Assembly (NCBI GenBank): GCA_964291295.2
Contig: OZ219754.1
Coordinates: 2,176,001 to 2,240,000, forward strand
DNA length: 64,000 nucleotides
Reading direction: 5' to 3'
Source of the DNA: an uncultured Candidatus Binatia bacterium
GTDB lineage: Bacteria; Desulfobacterota; Binatia; UBA9968; JAJDTQ01
Under the pieces are notes generated by a model. It saw only the letters and a program-made list of their open reading frames with translations. It searched no databases and had not been told where the DNA came from. Both the position numbers and the translations under genes were made by a program. Below, piece after piece: positions 3,295-60,278 of this stretch (the first letter of the stretch is position 1; the number at the start of each line of letters is the position of its first letter).

Positions 3295-4065
3295 ATGCTC
3301 ATGGAACAGCAGGTTACGTTCGGCAACGGCAGGGGCGAGCGGCTGGCGGGGGTGCTCCATCCGCCGCGGGGAACCGCCACCGGTTTCGGCGTGATCCTGT
3401 GCCACGGCATGGAGTCGAGCAAGGAAAGTCTCAAGCTCCTGCAACTGAGCGCGTCCCTGAGCGGCGCCGGCCACGCGGTGCTGCGCTTCGATTTCACCGG
3501 CGCCGGTGAGTCCTCCGGCGACTTCGAGTCCATCACCTGTACGCGGCAGGTGGACGACCTCGCGGCCGCCCACGAACGGTTGAAGGAACGCGGGACCGCC
3601 GAGGTGGGGATCGTCGGCTCCAGCATGGGCGGCACCACGGCGCTGCTCTACGCGGCGGCCGCGGACGGCGTGGCGGCGCTGGTGACCCTGGCGGCTCCGT
3701 TCGATCCGCGGGCGCTGCTGGAACGGGACTTTCCCCCCGGCGCGGTGGCGCGTTGGCGCGCCCGGGGATTCATCGAGTTCGGCGACCGTCGCCTCAAGAC
3801 GGACTTCCTCGAAGAGGCGCTCACCCTGGACGTCGCCGCGGCGGTGGCGCGGATCACCTGTCCGGTGCGGGTGATCCACGGCGGCGCCGACGCCACCGTG
3901 CCGGTGGAACAGGCCCGGGCGCTCCACGCCGCGCTTCCCGGTGAGAAGGCGTTGCACATCTTCCCGGATGCCGATCACCGCTTTACCGCACCGGACCATC
4001 GCGAAGCGGCCTTGGGCCTGGCGGAAGAGTGGCTTGGCCGGCACCTGAGGAGGGCCGCGGGGTGA
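3295..4065 (+). CDS. Alpha/beta hydrolase
   Basis: CHG..RFDFTGAGESSG, GSSMGG nucleophile elbow, HGGAD and DH catalytic residues. Confidence 0.9.
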   Translation: MLMEQQVTFGNGRGERLAGVLHPPRGTATGFGVILCHGMESSKESLKLLQLSASLSGAGHAVLRFDFTGAGESSGDFESITCTRQVDDLAAAHERLKERGTAEVGIVGSSMGGTTALLYAAAADGVAALVTLAAPFDPRALLERDFPPGAVARWRARGFIEFGDRRLKTDFLEEALTLDVAAAVARITCPVRVIHGGADATVPVEQARALHAALPGEKALHIFPDADHRFTAPDHREAALGLAEEWLGRHLRRAAG

Positions 4066-8151: not shown

Positions 8152-8880
8152 TCAGCCTGCAAGGTGGATTCTGTAGAAATTCACGGTTCGTCGCCACGCG
8201 TCGGCCGCGGCCTCGGGGTGGTAGCGGTCGGCGTTGGTGTTGTTGTTGAAGGCATGCCTGGCGCCATGGCCGTAGCTCTTGAGATCGATGGTCTTGCCGT
8301 TCCTTGCCAGCGCCTCCTTCAAGGGCTCGATGCCGGGAATGATGTTGGGATCGTCGTCGGCGTAGTTGCCCATGAGAGGGCAGGTGATTCTGGCCACCGC
8401 CTCCAGCGGGTCCGGGTTGCGCCCGTAGTACACCACGGCCGCATGGAGCCGATTGCACCGGGTGGCGAAATTGAGGGACTGGCCGCCGCCCCAGCAGTAG
8501 CCGACCACACCCACCTTGCCGTTGGTGAAGCCTTGGCCCTTGAGATACTCGAGGGTGCTTGTCAGGTCTTCCACGCAACCTTCGGGATCCAGGCTCCGGA
8601 TGGCGGCGATGGCCTCCTGCGACGTGGCGTACTGCCCGGTGCCGCCGGTGCGCTGGAGCAGGTCCGGCGCAAGGGCGGCGAAGCCCTCCTTGGCGAAGTG
8701 CCGCGCCACGTCCTTGATGTGGTCGACGAGGCCGACGTTTTCATGAATCACGATTACCGAACCCAGGTCGGTGCCGCCCCTGGGCCGCGACATGTAGCCC
8801 GTACAGCTTCCGTACCGGACCGTTCCCGATTCCAGCTCGGGGTCGTTCTCGTCGACGAGACGGGACAGGGTTTCTGCCAT
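8152..8880 (-). CDS. Dienelactone hydrolase family protein
   Basis: VIHENVGL, ALAPDL, GYCWGG and HAF motifs; AAAGGAG RBS. Confidence 0.92.
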   Translation of the reverse strand: MAETLSRLVDENDPELESGTVRYGSCTGYMSRPRGGTDLGSVIVIHENVGLVDHIKDVARHFAKEGFAALAPDLLQRTGGTGQYATSQEAIAAIRSLDPEGCVEDLTSTLEYLKGQGFTNGKVGVVGYCWGGGQSLNFATRCNRLHAAVVYYGRNPDPLEAVARITCPLMGNYADDDPNIIPGIEPLKEALARNGKTIDLKSYGHGARHAFNNNTNADRYHPEAAADAWRRTVNFYRIHLAG

Positions 8881-53254: not shown

Positions 53255-54343
53255 CTACAGGCCGTAGAGCGCCTTGGGATTGTGATACAGGATGTTGTCC
53301 TTCCGTTCCTGGCTGATGGCGTCCATCTTCTTCAGGTCGAGGATGGCGTCCATTTCGCTGGACGGATCCGTGTGGCCGTAGTCGGTGCCGATGACCAGGC
53401 CCCCCTCGCCCGTGAACTTGAGGACGTAGGGGATGTCGTCGTTGGTCTGGCAGGTGACGTAGATGCCGTACCGGGCGAACAGATCCCGGGGAAATTCCCG
53501 CCCGGCCGCCTGGTAGCGGTTCTCGGCCTCCAGGTAGATCCAGGGGACCCACTGGGAGGAGGCTTCGATGAAGCCCCACCGGAGGTCCGGAAAGACCTGG
53601 GGAATCTCGCTTATGATGAGGCCCAGGCATGCGGTGACCGTGGGCGCCCGGAACATGGCGAATCGGCCCGCCGCGGTCGGGCGGTAGGTGTCGCAGTTGG
53701 CAGGATTGCCATTGGCGATGTGCACGGCGATGGACATGTCCAGGTCGCTTGCCGCCTGGTAGACGGGATAGAAGTACGGGTCGGTCATGTCCCGCTCTCC
53801 CTCCAGAGGACGCATGCACACCGCCACCGCGCCATCCTCCCTGGCCTGCCTGATCTGGGACACCGCCTCGTCCAGGGCCAGCACCGGCACCACGCAGGAC
53901 CAGCGCAGCCGGCCCTGGCTCTGCCGGTAGATGTCCCCGAGCCAGCGGTTCCAGCTCCGGCACAGGGCGACTTCCTTGTCCGGCCGGGTGGTGATCTGTT
54001 CGATCCAGAAGGTGTTGTGGAGCACCTGTACGTCCACCCCCAGCCGGTTCATATGGTCGAGCCTGAGCTGGACGTCGTCCAGTTCCCGGGCGGCCCGGGA
54101 CGATTCGACGTTTCTTCCGAACTGGTCCGACAGGTCCCTCAGTTGCTGCTCGCTGTAGGTGGGGAAGCGGAATCCGCGGATCTTCTCGTCGATGACCCAG
54201 TACTGGAGCGTGGGCTCCTGAGGTGACGCGAAAAGCACGGGGCGGTATTTCTCCTCTGACGGCTCCAGATAGTCCCATGTGTGCTCGGTTTCGATCACAT
54301 GGGCATCCGCATCGATGACAGGGACCTGTTCCTGGCTGGACAT
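53255..54343 (-). CDS. Amidohydrolase_2 family protein
   Basis: IDADAHVIE, AVHIA, FIEA..WVP, IGTDYGH and NPKALYGL motifs. Confidence 0.92.
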   Translation of the reverse strand: MSSQEQVPVIDADAHVIETEHTWDYLEPSEEKYRPVLFASPQEPTLQYWVIDEKIRGFRFPTYSEQQLRDLSDQFGRNVESSRAARELDDVQLRLDHMNRLGVDVQVLHNTFWIEQITTRPDKEVALCRSWNRWLGDIYRQSQGRLRWSCVVPVLALDEAVSQIRQAREDGAVAVCMRPLEGERDMTDPYFYPVYQAASDLDMSIAVHIANGNPANCDTYRPTAAGRFAMFRAPTVTACLGLIISEIPQVFPDLRWGFIEASSQWVPWIYLEAENRYQAAGREFPRDLFARYGIYVTCQTNDDIPYVLKFTGEGGLVIGTDYGHTDPSSEMDAILDLKKMDAISQERKDNILYHNPKALYGL

Positions 54344-54570
54344 GGCGCGACTCCTTGATACGCGGCCGGGCATCCCGGATCGCAAGTGCTGTTCCCGGCA
54401 CCCTGTGGCCCGCCGGCGGGCGTGTCACCGTCAAGTTCGACCAACGGCCATCGTTTGTCAACCGTCCAGAGGGTCCCGACCAGGACTATCCCACGCTGAG
54501 TGTTTGTGCGAGGGGGGCGGGTTTGTGTCAGGCACCGGCGTTCTTGCGCTGGGGCAGTCCTACCTGGGGG

Positions 54571-54880
54571 ATGTTGGAACGCATCAGCAAGGGGGCGAGC
54601 GCGATCCATGGTGAGGCACCGGAAGGGTATTCGCTGTCGGAGGTGGAGGTACGTCTGGTGAAGCCGGAGGAGCGTCCGGACTGGGACGTGCTGATGGACA
54701 GGTATCATTATCTGGGCTTTCGCCGTCTGGCAGGCCGCGGCCTTCGTGATGTGGCGACCTTCAGATGCCGTTGGCTGGGCTTGGCGGCGTGGCAGAACGG
54801 CGCCTTCAAGTGCCGATCGCGGGACCGTTGGACGGGCTGGCGGTCGAAGCAGCAGTTCCAGCGTCCGGGTCTGATCGCGA
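54571..54880 (+). pseudogene. Truncated DUF4338-type N-terminus of a transposase-associated ORF
   Basis: WDVLMDRYHYLG..G..LR..WLGLAAW...RDRWTGW..Q..LIA, then homology stops; no DDE domain follows. Confidence 0.75.
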
Positions 54881-54921
54881 AGCAGCCAAGCTATCGCCGC
54901 CGTTACCCGGCCCTGACCGGC

Positions 54922-54975
54922 GACCGCAGTCGGAGGGTCCCGGCCCCAGACCGCCGTCGGAGGATCCCGGCCCCA
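54922..54975. repeat. Tandem 27-bp repeat, two copies
   Basis: GACCGCAGTCGGAGGGTCCCGGCCCCA / GACCGCCGTCGGAGGATCCCGGCCCCA. Confidence 0.85.
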
Positions 54976-54986
54976 ACCACGCCCGC

Positions 54987-55140
54987 AGGCTACCCGACCG
55001 TCCAAACCCATCCCCCGCTCACCCCGCAGGCGATCATCCCTCCACATTACCCCTACACCGACAACCACCAGGAAGGCGCCCAACACCCTTCCGCCCCGCC
55101 CTCATCTCAACACAACCTCCCCGGCATGGGAAAGTCCTGC
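54987..55140 (+). repeat. 154-bp direct repeat copy 1 (internal IS right end, TIR at 55124-55139)
   Basis: 146/154 identical to 59081-59234 by manual alignment. Confidence 0.92.
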
Positions 55141-55389
55141 CGGGGAACCCGGGGTGGGTTGACGAAGGCCGCGCCAGGTAATATGTGACACGCATGGTGA
55201 CAGGCGTTCGCGGAAGTCCGGATTGCAGAGGTTCAAGACCGGGACGTTGCCGGGATGGTGGCCCGTTTCGCCGATGGCGAGGGAATCGCCGACACTGCCT
55301 GTGCGAGGCTGTCCGGGGCGCTGGGGCAGACGGTTGGAGCGATAGCGGTTTATCGACGATGTACGAGCAATAATGGAACCGGAGAGGCC

Positions 55390-56406
55390 ATGAGCCCCGA
55401 ATTCGAATACCTGGATCGTGAAGTACCACGAGGAACTTTCTTTGATGTCATATTTGCGGTGATCCTTTTTCTGGTTTCCGGGTTCAGCGCATACACGACC
55501 TATCTCGGCTTCTCGAAGGATCTGCCGCTCTACATGAGCCTCCCGATCGCGGCAATCATTGGCTTGGGACTTTTGGGGATCAACTTCAAGATCCGGGAGG
55601 CAAGAATCGCCGATAACCCTCTCGGTTGGTCGTTCCTCGTATTCTCTATCGTCTTCGTGTTCAGTTTCATCAGCAATACCAACGCGTTTTACTCGCGACT
55701 CATCGAGGACGATATCGTGCGGGAAGCGCAGGAAGAAGCGTGGTCTATGTTCGACAGAGAGAGTATGAAGGCGCTCTCGTTGATCGACGATAATCCGCAA
55801 TACCAGAGCGAGCTTGCAACTATCGCGGAGGTAGAAAACGAACTCACCAAGCTCAGGGAACAGATTACCGACCCGCGCAACCTGGGACTCGGGCCGCGTG
55901 CCCAAGCGCACTTGAGACGGATCGAAGAGCTTCTGGAAACCAAATCTACCGATACGGTGCCCCCTTCGCCGGAGCGGCCTGAACGGGAGCACGAGCAATA
56001 CGCAGAGAAGCTTGAGAGACACATTCGAGAGCTTGTCGACGAACGCCAGCGTCGAGGGGACGTCCACAAACATGTGTCCCTCCACGACGATGTCTCACGG
56101 AAAAGGAATGCTCACCAAAAGCGTGTGGATGAGAAAGACTGGCACAGAGGCCATACGGATGAAATGCACCGCGATCTGAAATCCATCGAGAATCAGGTTA
56201 ACCGGCACTTGTCTCCGGTTCCGAAACTGGAGCTCGATGACATCAACGACAAAGCGGACGAAGTTGGAAAATTCAAATACACTTGGCGAAATTTCGTGCA
56301 AGCGGTAAGCCCGGTTGCGATCGCCCTTTCCGTTATATTGGGTGCCCTGCTCGATATCCTGGCCCCGATGATGTCCATCGCATTTTACCGTCCTCAATAC
56401 GATTAG
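55390..56406 (+). CDS. Membrane protein: 3 N-terminal TM, coiled coil, C-terminal TM (DUF4407-like layout)
   Basis: Hydrophobic segments at both ends, charged helical middle with DPRNLGLGPRA turn; GGAGAGG RBS. Confidence 0.85.
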   Translation: MSPEFEYLDREVPRGTFFDVIFAVILFLVSGFSAYTTYLGFSKDLPLYMSLPIAAIIGLGLLGINFKIREARIADNPLGWSFLVFSIVFVFSFISNTNAFYSRLIEDDIVREAQEEAWSMFDRESMKALSLIDDNPQYQSELATIAEVENELTKLREQITDPRNLGLGPRAQAHLRRIEELLETKSTDTVPPSPERPEREHEQYAEKLERHIRELVDERQRRGDVHKHVSLHDDVSRKRNAHQKRVDEKDWHRGHTDEMHRDLKSIENQVNRHLSPVPKLELDDINDKADEVGKFKYTWRNFVQAVSPVAIALSVILGALLDILAPMMSIAFYRPQYD

Positions 56407-56418
56407 GAGGTTCATTGG

Positions 56419-57408
56419 ATGCCCGAGACGAATCCTCAGAATGAGCCGATGCCTGTCCCCATCCGGCCGATACGTGTCGACGAAAATGACAGGTTGAACC
56501 CGAATCGTATCGTACCACCTCTCCCGCAGGGCGGGTACTGCCTGTTTACTGCTGGCGTCGTTGGATCTGGAAAGTCCACGCTCCAACACGCTCTGGTTCA
56601 CCGGCTCTACACGGACGAGCGCGTCGATCTCACGTTCAAGAATGAAGACGGAGAAACAAGCCCCAATGGCGAACTCCTGGATTGGATCAACAGATTCGAC
56701 CGTGGCGAATTTCCCGAGCGCACCCCCAAAGGTACACTCCAGACCTTCTTCATCGAATTCGGCCAGAGCGGCCAGAGCCGCCGACCGGTCAAGCTTAGCT
56801 TCGTCGAGATCCCGGGCGAAGACTTTTCGGCCATTCTGCCGCAGAAGGGCCGACCTGATTACGAACCGCGCCTGTCTTCGGAGCTGGAGCACCTTCTGAC
56901 AGCAAAGGATATCAATAAGCTGTTTATCCTGGTAGCTGATACGACTCGGCACGATCCCGCGACGGCCTTGAAGAAGTCGTCGGACGAGCGGGACCAACGT
57001 CTCTACGAAGACATGGTGTTCAGCGAATTGATCACCTATATGCGGGAACTAGGCCTGAATCGAATCAAGCTTCTTTTCGTTGCCGCGAAATGGGATGCTG
57101 CTCCGAACCGTAACCTCGATCCAAAGCGGTTCTTCGGACAGCATTTTCCTCAGGCCAGGTCCGCTCTTCGTCGCTTCGAAAAAGCTCAGGTTCAATACAT
57201 TCGATTCACAGTAGGAAATGTCCGGATCAGTGGAGACGAAACGGAGGGTTTCGCGCGAACCCCAATCGTGGAGAAGCACGATTTCCTACCCATCAGCCGC
57301 GTGATCCAGTGGATCCACACACACGCGACCGAGCGATCCTTGCCGGGCTACCCAACGGTTCGCTTGACGCTTTGGCAAAAGATCAAGCGATGGGCAGCAA
57401 CGACTTGA
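56419..57408 (+). CDS. TRAFAC-class GTPase (double-GTPase/DO-GTPase-like)
   Basis: G1 GVVGSGKST, G2 PERT, G3-like FVEIPGE, G4-like AAKWD; AGGAGG RBS. Confidence 0.85.
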   Translation: MPETNPQNEPMPVPIRPIRVDENDRLNPNRIVPPLPQGGYCLFTAGVVGSGKSTLQHALVHRLYTDERVDLTFKNEDGETSPNGELLDWINRFDRGEFPERTPKGTLQTFFIEFGQSGQSRRPVKLSFVEIPGEDFSAILPQKGRPDYEPRLSSELEHLLTAKDINKLFILVADTTRHDPATALKKSSDERDQRLYEDMVFSELITYMRELGLNRIKLLFVAAKWDAAPNRNLDPKRFFGQHFPQARSALRRFEKAQVQYIRFTVGNVRISGDETEGFARTPIVEKHDFLPISRVIQWIHTHATERSLPGYPTVRLTLWQKIKRWAATT

Positions 57409-58286
57409 AGTCTCCGGCCCTTTTTGTCTGCGGCACGCCTAGCGATCGATACGGATTCGAGTGCAGAACGCTCGACGGACCGCAGGTTCCAGATGGGTTT
57501 GCCAGATACTTGGACGACATCCCGGCTGAGAAATTTCCCAAGCGAGGAGATGCGACGCATTTCTTCTTTCGCGACAAGGATGAGGGCTGGGCGATGTACG
57601 CCGAGTATCGCTCAATCCATCCCAACGACGCAGATCACAACCGTGGCGCATTCATCGCCGTGGGCTGCTGGTCGAATGCGGCACTCACGCCCGATCAGGC
57701 GATGGAAGCCCTGTTCCGTATCGAGGACGTCCACCGCGATCTTGCGGAGAGGCGCGACCCGGACACCGATTCGTTCTCCCCCGACTTTCAATTGCCTGAA
57801 TACGCGGCACCCAACCTTGTAGTGCTGGATCGTGACCAGGTCGATCGGTCCCGGTTGGCTGATCTGTTTTGTCAGGCCGCAGCGGGCCGAGGGACATACA
57901 GCGGCCAATCCGGATCGGTGACCCTTACGTCCAAAGAGGTTGGCCAAGGCTTGCTCGCGCAGTTCTGCGCGCCGCCACCGGAGGCGGAACCTGCTCCTCC
58001 CGACCCGGGAAGCTGGCAAACGCGCTTGGATGAGGTGATACGGTACGGTATGGACGAATCACTGCAGACACGCCAAGCGCTCCGGAAACTGTCGAAGCTG
58101 GAAGACCAGCGTGCGAAGGTGCTCAAGTCCTTGACCCGGAGTTCGCGACGCGCTTCCGGGGCCGGAACGCGCCGGGGCGCCAGTACTGGGCCGCACATGA
58201 CGATCCGGGAGATTATCTTTTTCTCCCTCTGCGCGACGATTTGGACAGCAGTTGCAGTTGTATTGACAGTGATCTTCGCCACATGA
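57390..58286 (+). CDS. Hypothetical protein, GAP1-N-like N-terminus and C-terminal TM anchor
   Basis: Overlaps the GTPase stop; Y..I.P.D...RGAFIAVG motif, Pro-rich linker, helical segment, terminal hydrophobic helix. Confidence 0.75.
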   Translation: MGSNDLKSPALFVCGTPSDRYGFECRTLDGPQVPDGFARYLDDIPAEKFPKRGDATHFFFRDKDEGWAMYAEYRSIHPNDADHNRGAFIAVGCWSNAALTPDQAMEALFRIEDVHRDLAERRDPDTDSFSPDFQLPEYAAPNLVVLDRDQVDRSRLADLFCQAAAGRGTYSGQSGSVTLTSKEVGQGLLAQFCAPPPEAEPAPPDPGSWQTRLDEVIRYGMDESLQTRQALRKLSKLEDQRAKVLKSLTRSSRRASGAGTRRGASTGPHMTIREIIFFSLCATIWTAVAVVLTVIFAT

Positions 58287-58632
58287 TTGTCAAGTGGCGC
58301 CGGAAAATCGGGCAGATTTCCAACTCGACTTTGTGCATTACGAGGCGAAGAAAAGCGCGTAATGCATACGCCTTGAGCGGGAAATCGAGCCGTCGCGGGG
58401 CAGGGCACCCGAACCGCCAGCCCGCGGCAAGCCCATGGAGATGGACATGGGGCTCTGATTATGGCGCGATCCGTCTTCCGATATCTGCGCAACATCGCCC
58501 GGCATTCCTGGTAGCGGCTGCCACTGGAGCCAAGTGATGATGCCAGGAGCAGTTCCGGACGATACATCCCTGCCGCGGCGTGCGGCCATGAATGCCGGGA
58601 ATGCGCGATGCTGGAACTGCCGTTGAAGATGA

Positions 58633-59075
58633 TTACTGAAACAGCCAGGAGCCGATCGCACACCACGACATGGCAGTCAACACGAAGGCCGCCCAGTTCG
58701 AGAACAGGTCTGCACCCCTTCGAACAAGCCGGAAATCATTCCAGTTGATCTTCTCCCGTTGATCTTCAAGTATGAAACCCGGGCTCCGTGCACTTTAAGC
58801 TCCTCCTCCATCTTCCCATCGTCCTGCAGGTGAAAGTATCTCAGGACGTACCAATCGACATGGGCGAGAACCACCGTTACGCCGAGAACGATCATGCCCC
58901 ATTCATCCGACGGTCTTATGCCGAAGATCTCGAGATTCTTCGGATCGGCGCTTGCCGCTGCGGCTACGACCACAACACCCGCAAGCGCCAGAGTGTTGCA
59001 CCGGCTGGCTCTCCCAGCTTCTCGGTGGTATTGACCGCGCACTTCCGATCCTGCGGTGGGTACACGTACTCCAGG
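58633..59075 (-). pseudogene. Degraded small membrane-protein gene
   Basis: TM-like segments in shifted frames (NTLALAGVVVV.., GMIVLGVTVVLAH.., ADLFSNWAAFVLTAMSW..Q-stop); 5' end abuts repeat copy 2. Confidence 0.5.
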
Positions 59076-59080
59076 CCGAG

Positions 59081-59234
59081 AGGCTACCCGACCGCCCAAA
59101 CCCATCCCCCGCTCGCCCCGCCGGCGATCATCCCTCCACATTACCCCTACACCGACAACCACCAGGAAGGCGCCCAACACCCTTCCGCCCCGCCTTCATC
59201 TCAACACAACATTCCCGGCATGGAATAGTCCTGC
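59081..59234 (+). repeat. 154-bp direct repeat copy 2 (outer IS right end)
   Basis: 146/154 identical to 54987-55140. Confidence 0.92.
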
Positions 59235-59339
59235 GGTCCCGACCTTCCGCGGCCTTGCCACCCGCCGCGGTCCCCCCGTCCGTCCCGGAAACCGCCGCGC
59301 GGTCCGGCGCGTTCGCTCTTTCCACCCCGGCACCCCCGC

Positions 59340-60218
59340 TCAGGCCAAGGCCGCGACCCAACACAGCGCCACCACCGCGGCCGCCGCCAGACCGGTCCGG
59401 GTCTGGACGCGGATGCTCTCCGGGCGGTCCATGGTCCGTGCCAGCAGGGCACCGGAGACGCCGCCGGCGGCGAATCCCCAGAGATGGGCCCAGATGTCCA
59501 CCCGCGGTCCTCCGGTGCCGAACATGGCGAGGACCGCCAGGCCGGCCGCCACCGGCACCCAGGCCAGCTTGCCCCGCAGGCCGCGCCGCTGCCGCCGGAC
59601 CACTCCCGTGCCGCCGAGAACGCCCAGGGCGCCGAAGACCGCGGTGGACGCGCCGATGGAAACATGGTCGAAGCCGTGAAACCAGGCGTTGCACAGATTT
59701 CCCAGTGCGCCCGCGCCCAGCACCAGGGCCGTGCCGACTCCGGGCCCTTCGGCCCGGCAGACCGCGGTGAGAAAGAACAGCAGGGCGACGGCATTGGCGC
59801 CCACGTGGGCCAGGTCGGCGTGCAGGGTGAGGGCGGTGACCGTGCGCCACAGCTCGCCGCCAAGGATCAGGTCGGCGGATGCGCTGCCGCGCTCGATCCA
59901 GGGCACCGACCCTTGGGTCCATGCGGCAAGGGAGAAAAAGGCCAGCAGCCCCGCGGCCACTGCCGCACCGGTGTAGAGGGGTGCCTGGCCGGGCCAGGGC
60001 TGTTCCTGCGGTATCGGGGTCCGGCTCTCGTTTTCGTAGTCCCAGAGTTCGGTGACCGCCTGTTCCAGGTGTCGGGAAGGGACCGACAGGACCCAGCCGC
60101 TGGAGGTGTGCGCCAGACGCGGAGCCAGCCCTTCCGCCTCAAGCACCAGCGCCCATTCCTCGATCTGGCGCAGGTCCGACGTCCTGCGTACGATGATTTC
60201 CCGTTGTGACTGTATCAT
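59340..60218 (-). CDS. Rhomboid intramembrane serine protease
   Basis: ELWRTVTALTLHAD..H..N, IGASTAVFG and WAHLWG motifs. Confidence 0.92.
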   Translation of the reverse strand: MIQSQREIIVRRTSDLRQIEEWALVLEAEGLAPRLAHTSSGWVLSVPSRHLEQAVTELWDYENESRTPIPQEQPWPGQAPLYTGAAVAAGLLAFFSLAAWTQGSVPWIERGSASADLILGGELWRTVTALTLHADLAHVGANAVALLFFLTAVCRAEGPGVGTALVLGAGALGNLCNAWFHGFDHVSIGASTAVFGALGVLGGTGVVRRQRRGLRGKLAWVPVAAGLAVLAMFGTGGPRVDIWAHLWGFAAGGVSGALLARTMDRPESIRVQTRTGLAAAAVVALCWVAALA

Positions 60219-60278
60219 GGCGGCTGCGCGTCTCCGTTTCAAATATCGAACACGGGCGGCGGCTTCAACCGGGGAGCC

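Follow-up and report, generated by a model that had tools for sequence, protein, structure and literature searches.

How did three foreign genes come to lie between the ends of an insertion sequence (IS) whose transposase gene has been reduced to a remnant? The question is raised by a unit of ~4.75 kb in a stretch of 64,000 nucleotides from an uncultured Candidatus Binatia bacterium (assembly GCA_964291295.2, contig OZ219754.1); the whole stretch is referred to as the window, the genome is labeled G000 and the contig C1, the window being C1:2176001-2240000. Direct reading and a repeat search place the unit at window positions 54471-59243 and give the order left end (L), IS, inner right end (R1), cargo and outer right end (R2). 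We consider it likely that this is a decayed and immobile transposition unit of the ISAs1 family, in which L was paired with R2 and the block was inserted whole, together with its foreign three-gene cargo.

The left terminal inverted repeat, CAGGACTATCCCACGCTG (54481-54498, forward strand), starts with CAGG and was located by direct reading, repeat search and end mapping; the same terminus is found at about ten other left ends in G000 and in an intact element of the sister species G005. It opens an internally deleted mini-IS of 659 bp (54481-55139, forward strand), for which blastn against the family copies shows that positions 1-404 correspond to the left part and 459-659 to the right part of copies of 1.6 kb; identity to the other family copies in G000 is 80-89%. 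The frame at 54355-55185 is a truncated transposase open reading frame (ORF), matching Pfam DruA/DUF4338 (PF14236, E 5.6e-7) without a DDE domain. All that is kept in this remnant (54619-54894, forward strand) is the DUF4338 domain, which has been read as GNAT-like (PMC10853773), and in tblastn its protein aligns at 54% identity with residues 16-107 of the 603-residue transposase that is intact in G005, the only residues left; the IS is short by 1.45 kb, including the whole DDE domain. R1 (54987-55139) closes the mini-IS with the terminal repeat ...CATGGGAAAGTCCTG, the cargo of 3.9 kb follows (55140-59080, delimited by its GC profile and by blastn), and R2, a fragment of 153 nt with the terminus ...CATGGAATAGTCCTG, occupies 59081-59233; all three are read on the forward strand, and both right ends were recovered by reading, repeat search, blastn and end mapping. 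R1 and R2 are 94.8% identical over 153 nt in blastn (54987-55139 against 59081-59233) and 93% identical over 164 ungapped nt in the repeat search. As inverted repeats, L matches each right end at 15 of 18 positions by eye, and the repeat search pairs L with R2 over 16 nt at 88% complementarity. An earlier note on this DNA, made from the letters alone, had named the left end at 54481, right ends at 55139 and 59233 with about 95% identity between them, and a truncated DUF4338 ORF, and each of these was found again.

What sets the outer pair of ends apart is the target-site duplication. The ten nucleotides before 54481, GGGTCCCGAC (54471-54480), and those after 59233, CGGTCCCGAC (59234-59243), agree at nine of ten positions, sharing the 9-mer GGTCCCGAC (54472-54480 and 59235-59243), whereas the ten nucleotides that follow the inner right end at 55139, CCGGGGAACC, agree with the left flank at only two; the earlier note was right to draw the duplication around the outer ends only. 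Because the duplication encloses these alone, the unit from L to R2 appears to have been inserted as one piece, and we infer that transposition made use of L and R2 as its ends. A coincidental flank match or an assembly artefact, with the locus a jumble of IS remains next to foreign DNA, strikes us as highly improbable: G000 is indeed rich in IS fragments, solo left and right ends included, and the duplication has one mismatch, but agreement at nine of ten positions occurred in only 182 of 2,000,000 random pairs of 10-mers drawn from G000, and it is present at all five units of this kind (see below), two of which have exact empty sites. Furthermore, all four junctions (flank-L, R1-cargo, cargo-R2 and R2-flank) are covered by Logan contigs of two public runs that belong to a single study; since contigs of two runs span each junction an assembly artefact is unlikely, even though the run that covers them best may be the source sample of the window assembly itself.

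All left and right ends of the family were mapped across G000. Four further units pair a left end with a boundary past the IS's own right end: for E2 and E3 this boundary is a truncated copy of the right end, for E1 and a fifth unit it is cryptic host sequence that resembles a right end. E2 (C1:1816588-1825384) and E3 (C1:3073368-3064738) have the same order as the window unit, L-IS-R1-cargo-R2, around a cargo of 7 kb that is 97% identical between them and encodes a fibronectin-III (FN3) protein of 1,842 residues, one of a host gene family with multiple copies. The same truncated R2 of 360 nt, with an identical junction to the cargo, closes both units, and the outer flanks of each have their own match at nine of ten positions, with 3/10 and 1/10 at the inner ends. 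The same truncated R2 at two sites, with two different duplications, argues that these units moved with a mere end fragment at the far side. For E3 there is an exact empty site in the sister genomes G002 and G010, where the two flanks overlap by the 9-mer, present once.

This bears directly on the classical composite transposon, in which two complete IS copies would have moved the cargo and then decayed in place, one by deletion and the other by a truncation that spared only the final 153 nt. Such transposons are the textbook route for cargo movement (PMC3281130), every family copy in G000 is decayed, so decay in place does occur, and the window copy itself carries no sign of the order of events. 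In E2 and E3, however, the shared joint at the truncated R2 places the truncation before the movement, and a second IS is superfluous for E1 and the fifth unit; we therefore regard a composite origin as unlikely.

E1 (C1:3342029-3350515) shares with E2 and E3 the IS, the cargo and the joint between the two, and is without R2; it extends 118 nt further into host-like sequence, shared with a paralogue at C1:2905052, and terminates in ...CAGAAGGGCCTG, with the flanks AAAGTCCGTT and AAAGTCCGTA. Its exact empty site is found in four sister species (G006, G007, G035 and G037), with AAAG(T/C)CCGT present once. The fifth unit runs from a left end at C1:2771663 to ~2769602, where the terminus GGGGAAGCTCTG agrees with the usual right end at 9 of 12 positions by our own count; its flanks, TCCGGGTCTC and TTCGGGTCTC, agree at 9/10, and G010 has a near-empty locus in which they lie 58 nt apart. 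No duplication was seen around any of the four L...R1 pairs tested (0-3/10), nor around two mini-IS copies (C1:295070 and 3602580) whose flanks were read by eye; every family copy in G000 with a recognizable duplication, five units in all, overshoots its own right end. In both types of cargo the genes are co-directional with the IS and start ~250 nt past its right end. This recurrence, which includes two cryptic ends, points to bypass of the right end by a single IS, as a recurrent behavior of this element, beyond capture between two IS ends.

The transposase would thus have paired the left end of the IS at 54481 with the right-end copy past the cargo at 59233, bypassing the IS's own right end at 55139. 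The whole L-IS-R1-cargo-R2 block would have been inserted between an amidohydrolase gene and a rhomboid gene, duplicating a target of 9-10 bp, and the IS would then, or earlier, have lost 1.45 kb, including the DDE domain of its transposase, leaving the cassette dead. We found no second copy of the 659-bp deletion derivative in G000 by blastn, and all family copies in this genome are decayed; for these reasons the deletion in the transposase may be later than the insertion. The earlier note had proposed that a deleted mini-IS paired with a distal right end captured the cargo and was moved in trans as one cassette; insertion in one piece agrees with the outer duplication, and movement in trans would require that the deletion came first.

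The absence of a second 659-bp derivative also speaks against a two-step history, in which the mini-IS was inserted first and a circular or plasmid-borne cargo with its own right-end copy later recombined into the right end. This history would produce the same final anatomy, with a duplication around the outer ends only; the difference of 5-7% between R1 and R2 is as expected of separate source copies, and mini derivatives of the family do exist in G000. On the other hand, the homology available for the crossover is only 153 nt, in E2 and E3 the complete L...R2 unit did demonstrably move with its R2 already truncated, and E1 and the fifth unit achieved bypass without a second IS end. Because the sibling units moved whole, we rate recombination below transposition in one piece, and consider it rather improbable.

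Several further observations concern the family's ends and its FN3 cargo. The minis at C1:295070-296985 and 3602580-3597800 were considered as additional units and rejected, since the segment they share ends without an IS end or a duplication; they have the right end and 1.25-1.6 kb of downstream DNA in common at 98-100% identity, a segmental duplication. A solo left end at C1:163352-164817 may be partnered by ...ATCCTCCTG, 1.47 kb downstream of it, after which comes GGCCGCCGG, the same 9-mer as in the left flank; this 9-mer is GC-rich and common, and the match may be due to chance. The E1 target, GGAAAGTCCGT (C1:3342000-3342028; empty sites L031, L033, L035 and L036), resembles the right end of the IS, GGGAAAGTCCTG, hinting that target sites similar to the ends may be preferred. 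Three fragments of the right end (R2 of E2/E3, corresponding to ~1250-1290 of the E3 IS; a solo fragment at 2630907; and the mini at 3602380) have left boundaries that fall within ~40 nt of each other and adjoin an internal GAGGGACTG that resembles the right end; with boundaries ~40 nt apart, a shared hot spot for such fragments is unconvincing. The family of giant FN3 proteins from which E1-E3 took their cargo is large, with many full and partial paralogues at 66-95% identity, some of them in long arrays; its loci include C1:580235-586113, 1801166-1805068, 2905170-2910099, 2350743-2378604 and 3620451-3640213.

To which family does the IS belong? Members of the ISAs1 family as a general rule have ends that begin with CAGG(G) and make duplications of 8-10 bp, and are usually about 1.2-1.5 kb long. 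Among 28 genomes of the genus, DNA of the mini-IS is found in G000 and G005 only, the latter having seven copies at ~70% identity, and it is through DNA and protein homology to this relative that the window element can be assigned. The intact G005 element is 2.14 kb long with a single ORF of 603 codons (L022:1466-3274); its transposase matches Pfam DruA and DDE_Tnp_1_assoc, as well as the NCBIfam ISAs1 model NF033564 (2e-39, 135.6 bits, cut-off 70), and it has the ends CAGGGCAATCCCACGCT... and ...AGCGTGGGATAGTCCTG, near-identical to those in the window, with a perfect 10-bp duplication. A second relative of intact length, 2.13 kb with a 9-bp duplication, is present in an alphaproteobacterial metagenome-assembled genome (MAG; locus L026). 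The ends of these elements begin with CAGG(G) and the duplications measure 9-10 bp (10 bp in G005, 9 bp in L026 and 9-10 bp at the five G000 units), as is usual for the family; the size of the relatives, 2.13-2.14 kb with a single ORF, is greater than usual because of the DUF4338 extension. Judged by this homology, the window element is an ISAs1-family IS whose transposase had an N-terminal DUF4338/DruA domain, the family that the earlier note had suggested. Beyond the chromosomes, 643 plasmid records match the G005 transposase and only two of them span 80% or more of its length.

An intact family transposase could not be identified on any of the three contigs of G000 in tblastn searches with the G005 protein. 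Four copies of 1.6 kb lack residues ~260-423 and contain frameshifts, and two further copies end after residues 193 and 255; Pfam searches with eight frames or pieces of the 1.6-kb copy in E1 returned no family, these copies being too decayed to be typed directly. As no intact family transposase is left in G000, the window cassette is, on the sequence evidence, a fossil, immobile now, and its IS family is extinct in this genome. The expectation of the earlier note that a transposase-encoding element with these ends exists is borne out by the intact G005 copy; an autonomous element in G000 itself is not there to be found, and the other cassettes for which it had suggested a search are E1-E3 and the fifth unit.

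The DUF4338 domain also occurs elsewhere in G000. An IS of 2.46 kb, with four copies that are at least 98.5% identical (C1:1536940-1539397, 697287-699744, 2793248-2795704 and 3518615-3521074), has a frame of 786-791 codons whose DUF4338/DruA domain precedes an extended C-terminal part, which by eye only resembles an IS4/Tn5-like transposase. As an N-terminal domain, DUF4338 is apparently joined to at least two transposase lineages in this genome, including the ISAs1 fusions of the window family and at 349570-355232.

The insertion site was compared with that of relatives. The left neighbor of the unit is an Amidohydro_2 gene (53255-54382, reverse strand) and the right neighbor a Rhomboid gene (59340-60239, reverse strand), the Pfam matches agreeing with the amidohydrolase and rhomboid genes of the earlier note, and both genes were matched in all 18 of the genus relatives searched. 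Several results from this locus and its siblings weigh against transposition of the window unit as one piece. We could not identify an empty site for it in the genus relatives: in ~15 relatives with positions compared, the flanking genes are separated by 0.8-5.5 kb of other DNA, homology to the relatives ends ~15 nt before L and resumes ~106 nt after R2 (10 loci checked), and the 22-nt left flank has no match in metagenome_contigs. Nor was an empty site identified for E2: in the eight loci checked, conservation of its flanks does not reach the ends, homology stopping ~290 nt short. The cargo-R2 joint shows no recognizable end or duplication. The window unit is single-copy, and its movement in one piece is argued from one duplication with 9/10 agreement together with the analogy to the sibling units; a mini-IS that later gained the cargo by recombination at its right end would leave an equal duplication. 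The check for an empty site put forward in the earlier note has thus been answered for E1 and E3, with exact sites in sister species, and not for the window copy. Recombination of R1 with R2, which the earlier note had raised as a way to lose the cargo, would leave a joint across it; no joint across the cargo or the whole unit is seen among the contigs of the two runs, which cannot show absence. In G010 (L015 2700-3511) a gene resembling short-chain dehydrogenases (SDR), by eye, lies between the rhomboid and amidohydrolase genes; in G000 the intergenic DNA there amounts to only ~122 nt once the unit is discounted.

The cargo stands out by its base composition, with a GC content of 0.52-0.63 as against 0.65-0.77 in the flanks, and contains three co-oriented genes. 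ORF1 (55390-56406, forward strand) encodes a protein of 338 residues with four hydrophobic segments, three N-terminal and one C-terminal, around a long polar stretch; it has no match in Pfam, NCBIfam or PADLOC, and its Atlas feature matches of 0.96 to clusters auto-named DUF4407 are a lead only. ORF2 (56419-57408, forward strand; 329 residues) encodes a P-loop GTPase with the Walker A motif GVVGSGKS, which matches the DO-GTPase1 family (PF19975, E 7.4e-10, 39 bits, cut-off 27). ORF3 (57390-58286, forward strand; 298 residues) overlaps the end of ORF2 and its product has one C-terminal hydrophobic segment; weak Atlas leads (0.77-0.81) go to GAP1-N2 clusters. The remaining ~0.8 kb (58287-59080) is a tail without a convincing gene, for which no relative was found; minus-strand ORFs there were rejected as genes, having no family matches and unconvincing sequences. 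Compared with two MAGs that carry related loci, the ratio of nonsynonymous to synonymous substitution (dN/dS) is 0.10-0.14 for ORF1, 0.15-0.17 for ORF2 and 0.42-0.46 for ORF3, with no stops; all three genes are under purifying selection, ORF3 being the faster evolving. The leader of the cargo gave no Rfam match at E up to 1, and a promoter scan found one site, no more than in shuffled sequences. Upstream of ORF1, a stretch of 139 nt (55157-55295, forward strand) has a 78% copy at C1:1540593-1540719; by blastn this is the only part of the cargo that is not single-copy in G000. The other copy of this repeat lies ~1.2 kb beyond an IS4-type element.

In the work of Kaur, Burroughs, Iyer and Aravind (2020; PMC7159879), DO-GTPases have been described as the core of predicted conflict systems, usually with a GAP1 gene, their defining partner, downstream and often with membrane partners. 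The cargo module comprises the membrane protein of ORF1, the DO-GTPase1 of ORF2 and the tail-anchored protein of ORF3; to judge by a single family match and the gene order, it is probably a membrane-associated, GTP-switched conflict or defense system. It resembles the published systems in its DO-GTPase1, its membrane components and a gene at the usual place of GAP1, and differs from them in having a single GTPase and no zinc ribbon, and in lacking a recognizable GAP1, GASH, effector domain or PADLOC model. To be set against the functional assignment is that it comes from one Pfam family, that the four cargo proteins searched gave no match in PADLOC, and that ORF3 has no family match in NCBIfam, PADLOC or Pfam (even at E 10) and is not recognizable as GAP1. 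No effector domain was recognized by Pfam, NCBIfam or PADLOC in ORF1, ORF3 or the 0.8-kb tail.

Where did the cargo come from? The block at 55405-58016 is 75-82% identical in nucleotide sequence to loci of two unrelated MAGs, one from the Poriferihabitaceae and one from the Alphaproteobacteria, and the cargo GTPase is found in one of 301 genomes of the class, G000 alone; searches for relatives of the cargo in metagenome_contigs and in plasmids found none. By its low GC content and this distribution, the cargo is foreign and horizontally acquired. There is no left-end motif of the window type in the two MAG loci at up to three mismatches, the element in L026 having its own diverged ends. That element, the 2.13-kb DUF4338-ISAs1 relative, is co-oriented with the module and situated 1.64 kb upstream; its DruA, DDE_Tnp_1_assoc and DDE_Tnp_1 pieces are frameshifted, and it is flanked by a 9-bp duplication of its own, CGGCCGGTC; no third IS end was found beyond the module in this locus, and the proximity of IS and module, seen in one of the two loci, may be due to chance. 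Only tentatively, and with the odds against it, can it be suggested that bypass of the own right end is the rule in the DUF4338-fused ISAs1 lineage, which would make it a habitual gene-capture vehicle like ISEcp1, taking host FN3 genes and ferrying the DO-GTPase module between distant lineages.

Two other observations were made on the module. In L026, AT-richer repeats at 3463-4000 and 8460-8870 bracket the GTPase module; they include 118 nt repeated directly at 81% identity and, in addition, an inverted pair 375 nt apart, and look like copies of a different miniature element. The two public runs (X1 and X2) contain a second version of the cargo module over window positions 55404-57700, 90-95% alike and with a higher summed depth. 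Its similarity begins at the first codons of ORF1 (loose end 55404), so that a related module, free of this IS context, is present in a different organism of that community.

The kind of element is an ordinary one, an IS-driven gene-capture unit that is now dead; what is extended is the behavior, to an ISAs1 lineage with an unusual transposase. Capture by overshoot of a single IS is best known from the IS1380 family, where it spreads resistance genes, and the same footprints are now seen in the ISAs1 family. For the little-studied predicted DO-GTPase1 module, with its two membrane proteins, the unit offers a concrete route of entry into a genome whose class is otherwise without the module in the genomes searched. 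There is also a consequence for annotation, in that L...R2 units are easily misread as separate IS fragments beside unrelated genes. A literature search, which covered neither ISfinder nor TnCentral, found nothing that joins ISAs1 with DUF4338, and in the passages concerned the papers on ISAs1-family passengers describe no such units.

In the transposition units of ISEcp1, the left end pairs with sequence beyond the IS's own right end. The units described here share with these, and with the transposable modules (TMos) of ISPme1 and IS1247a, a single IS at one end followed by downstream DNA, a left end paired beyond the own right end, a duplication around the whole unit, and units from one donor that vary in length (E1 compared with E2 and E3). 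TMos of the IS1380 family have been described as a single IS mobilizing adjacent DNA, unlike composite transposons or transposase-less mobile insertion cassettes (MICs) (PMC3281130); the IS involved there is of the IS1380 family, here of ISAs1 with a DUF4338-fused transposase. The window unit also differs from TMos in that its distal end is a true copy of the right end and not a cryptic look-alike, that its IS is without a transposase, and that it is known from footprints alone. ISArsp11, an ISAs1-family element of 1,306 bp, likewise has CAGG(G) ends (CAGGGCTG...) and a 10-bp duplication, and its table entry lists no passenger genes (PMC6305408, Table 3). MICs, described for IS231 in Bacillus cereus and mentioned in PMC3281130, and transporter IS (tIS) are similar in that cargo genes are enclosed by IS-type ends while a transposase is lacking, and any movement would need one supplied in trans; MICs have one left and one right end, whereas the window unit keeps an internal right end and a transposase remnant, and looks like a decayed autonomous unit rather than a dedicated cassette. 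With a composite transposon containing a truncated IS it has in common that end copies in direct orientation bracket unrelated genes and that the outer ends are used; in place of a second IS, however, there is an end of 153 nt (360 nt in E2 and E3), and its siblings E1 and the fifth unit bypassed their own right ends without any second IS.

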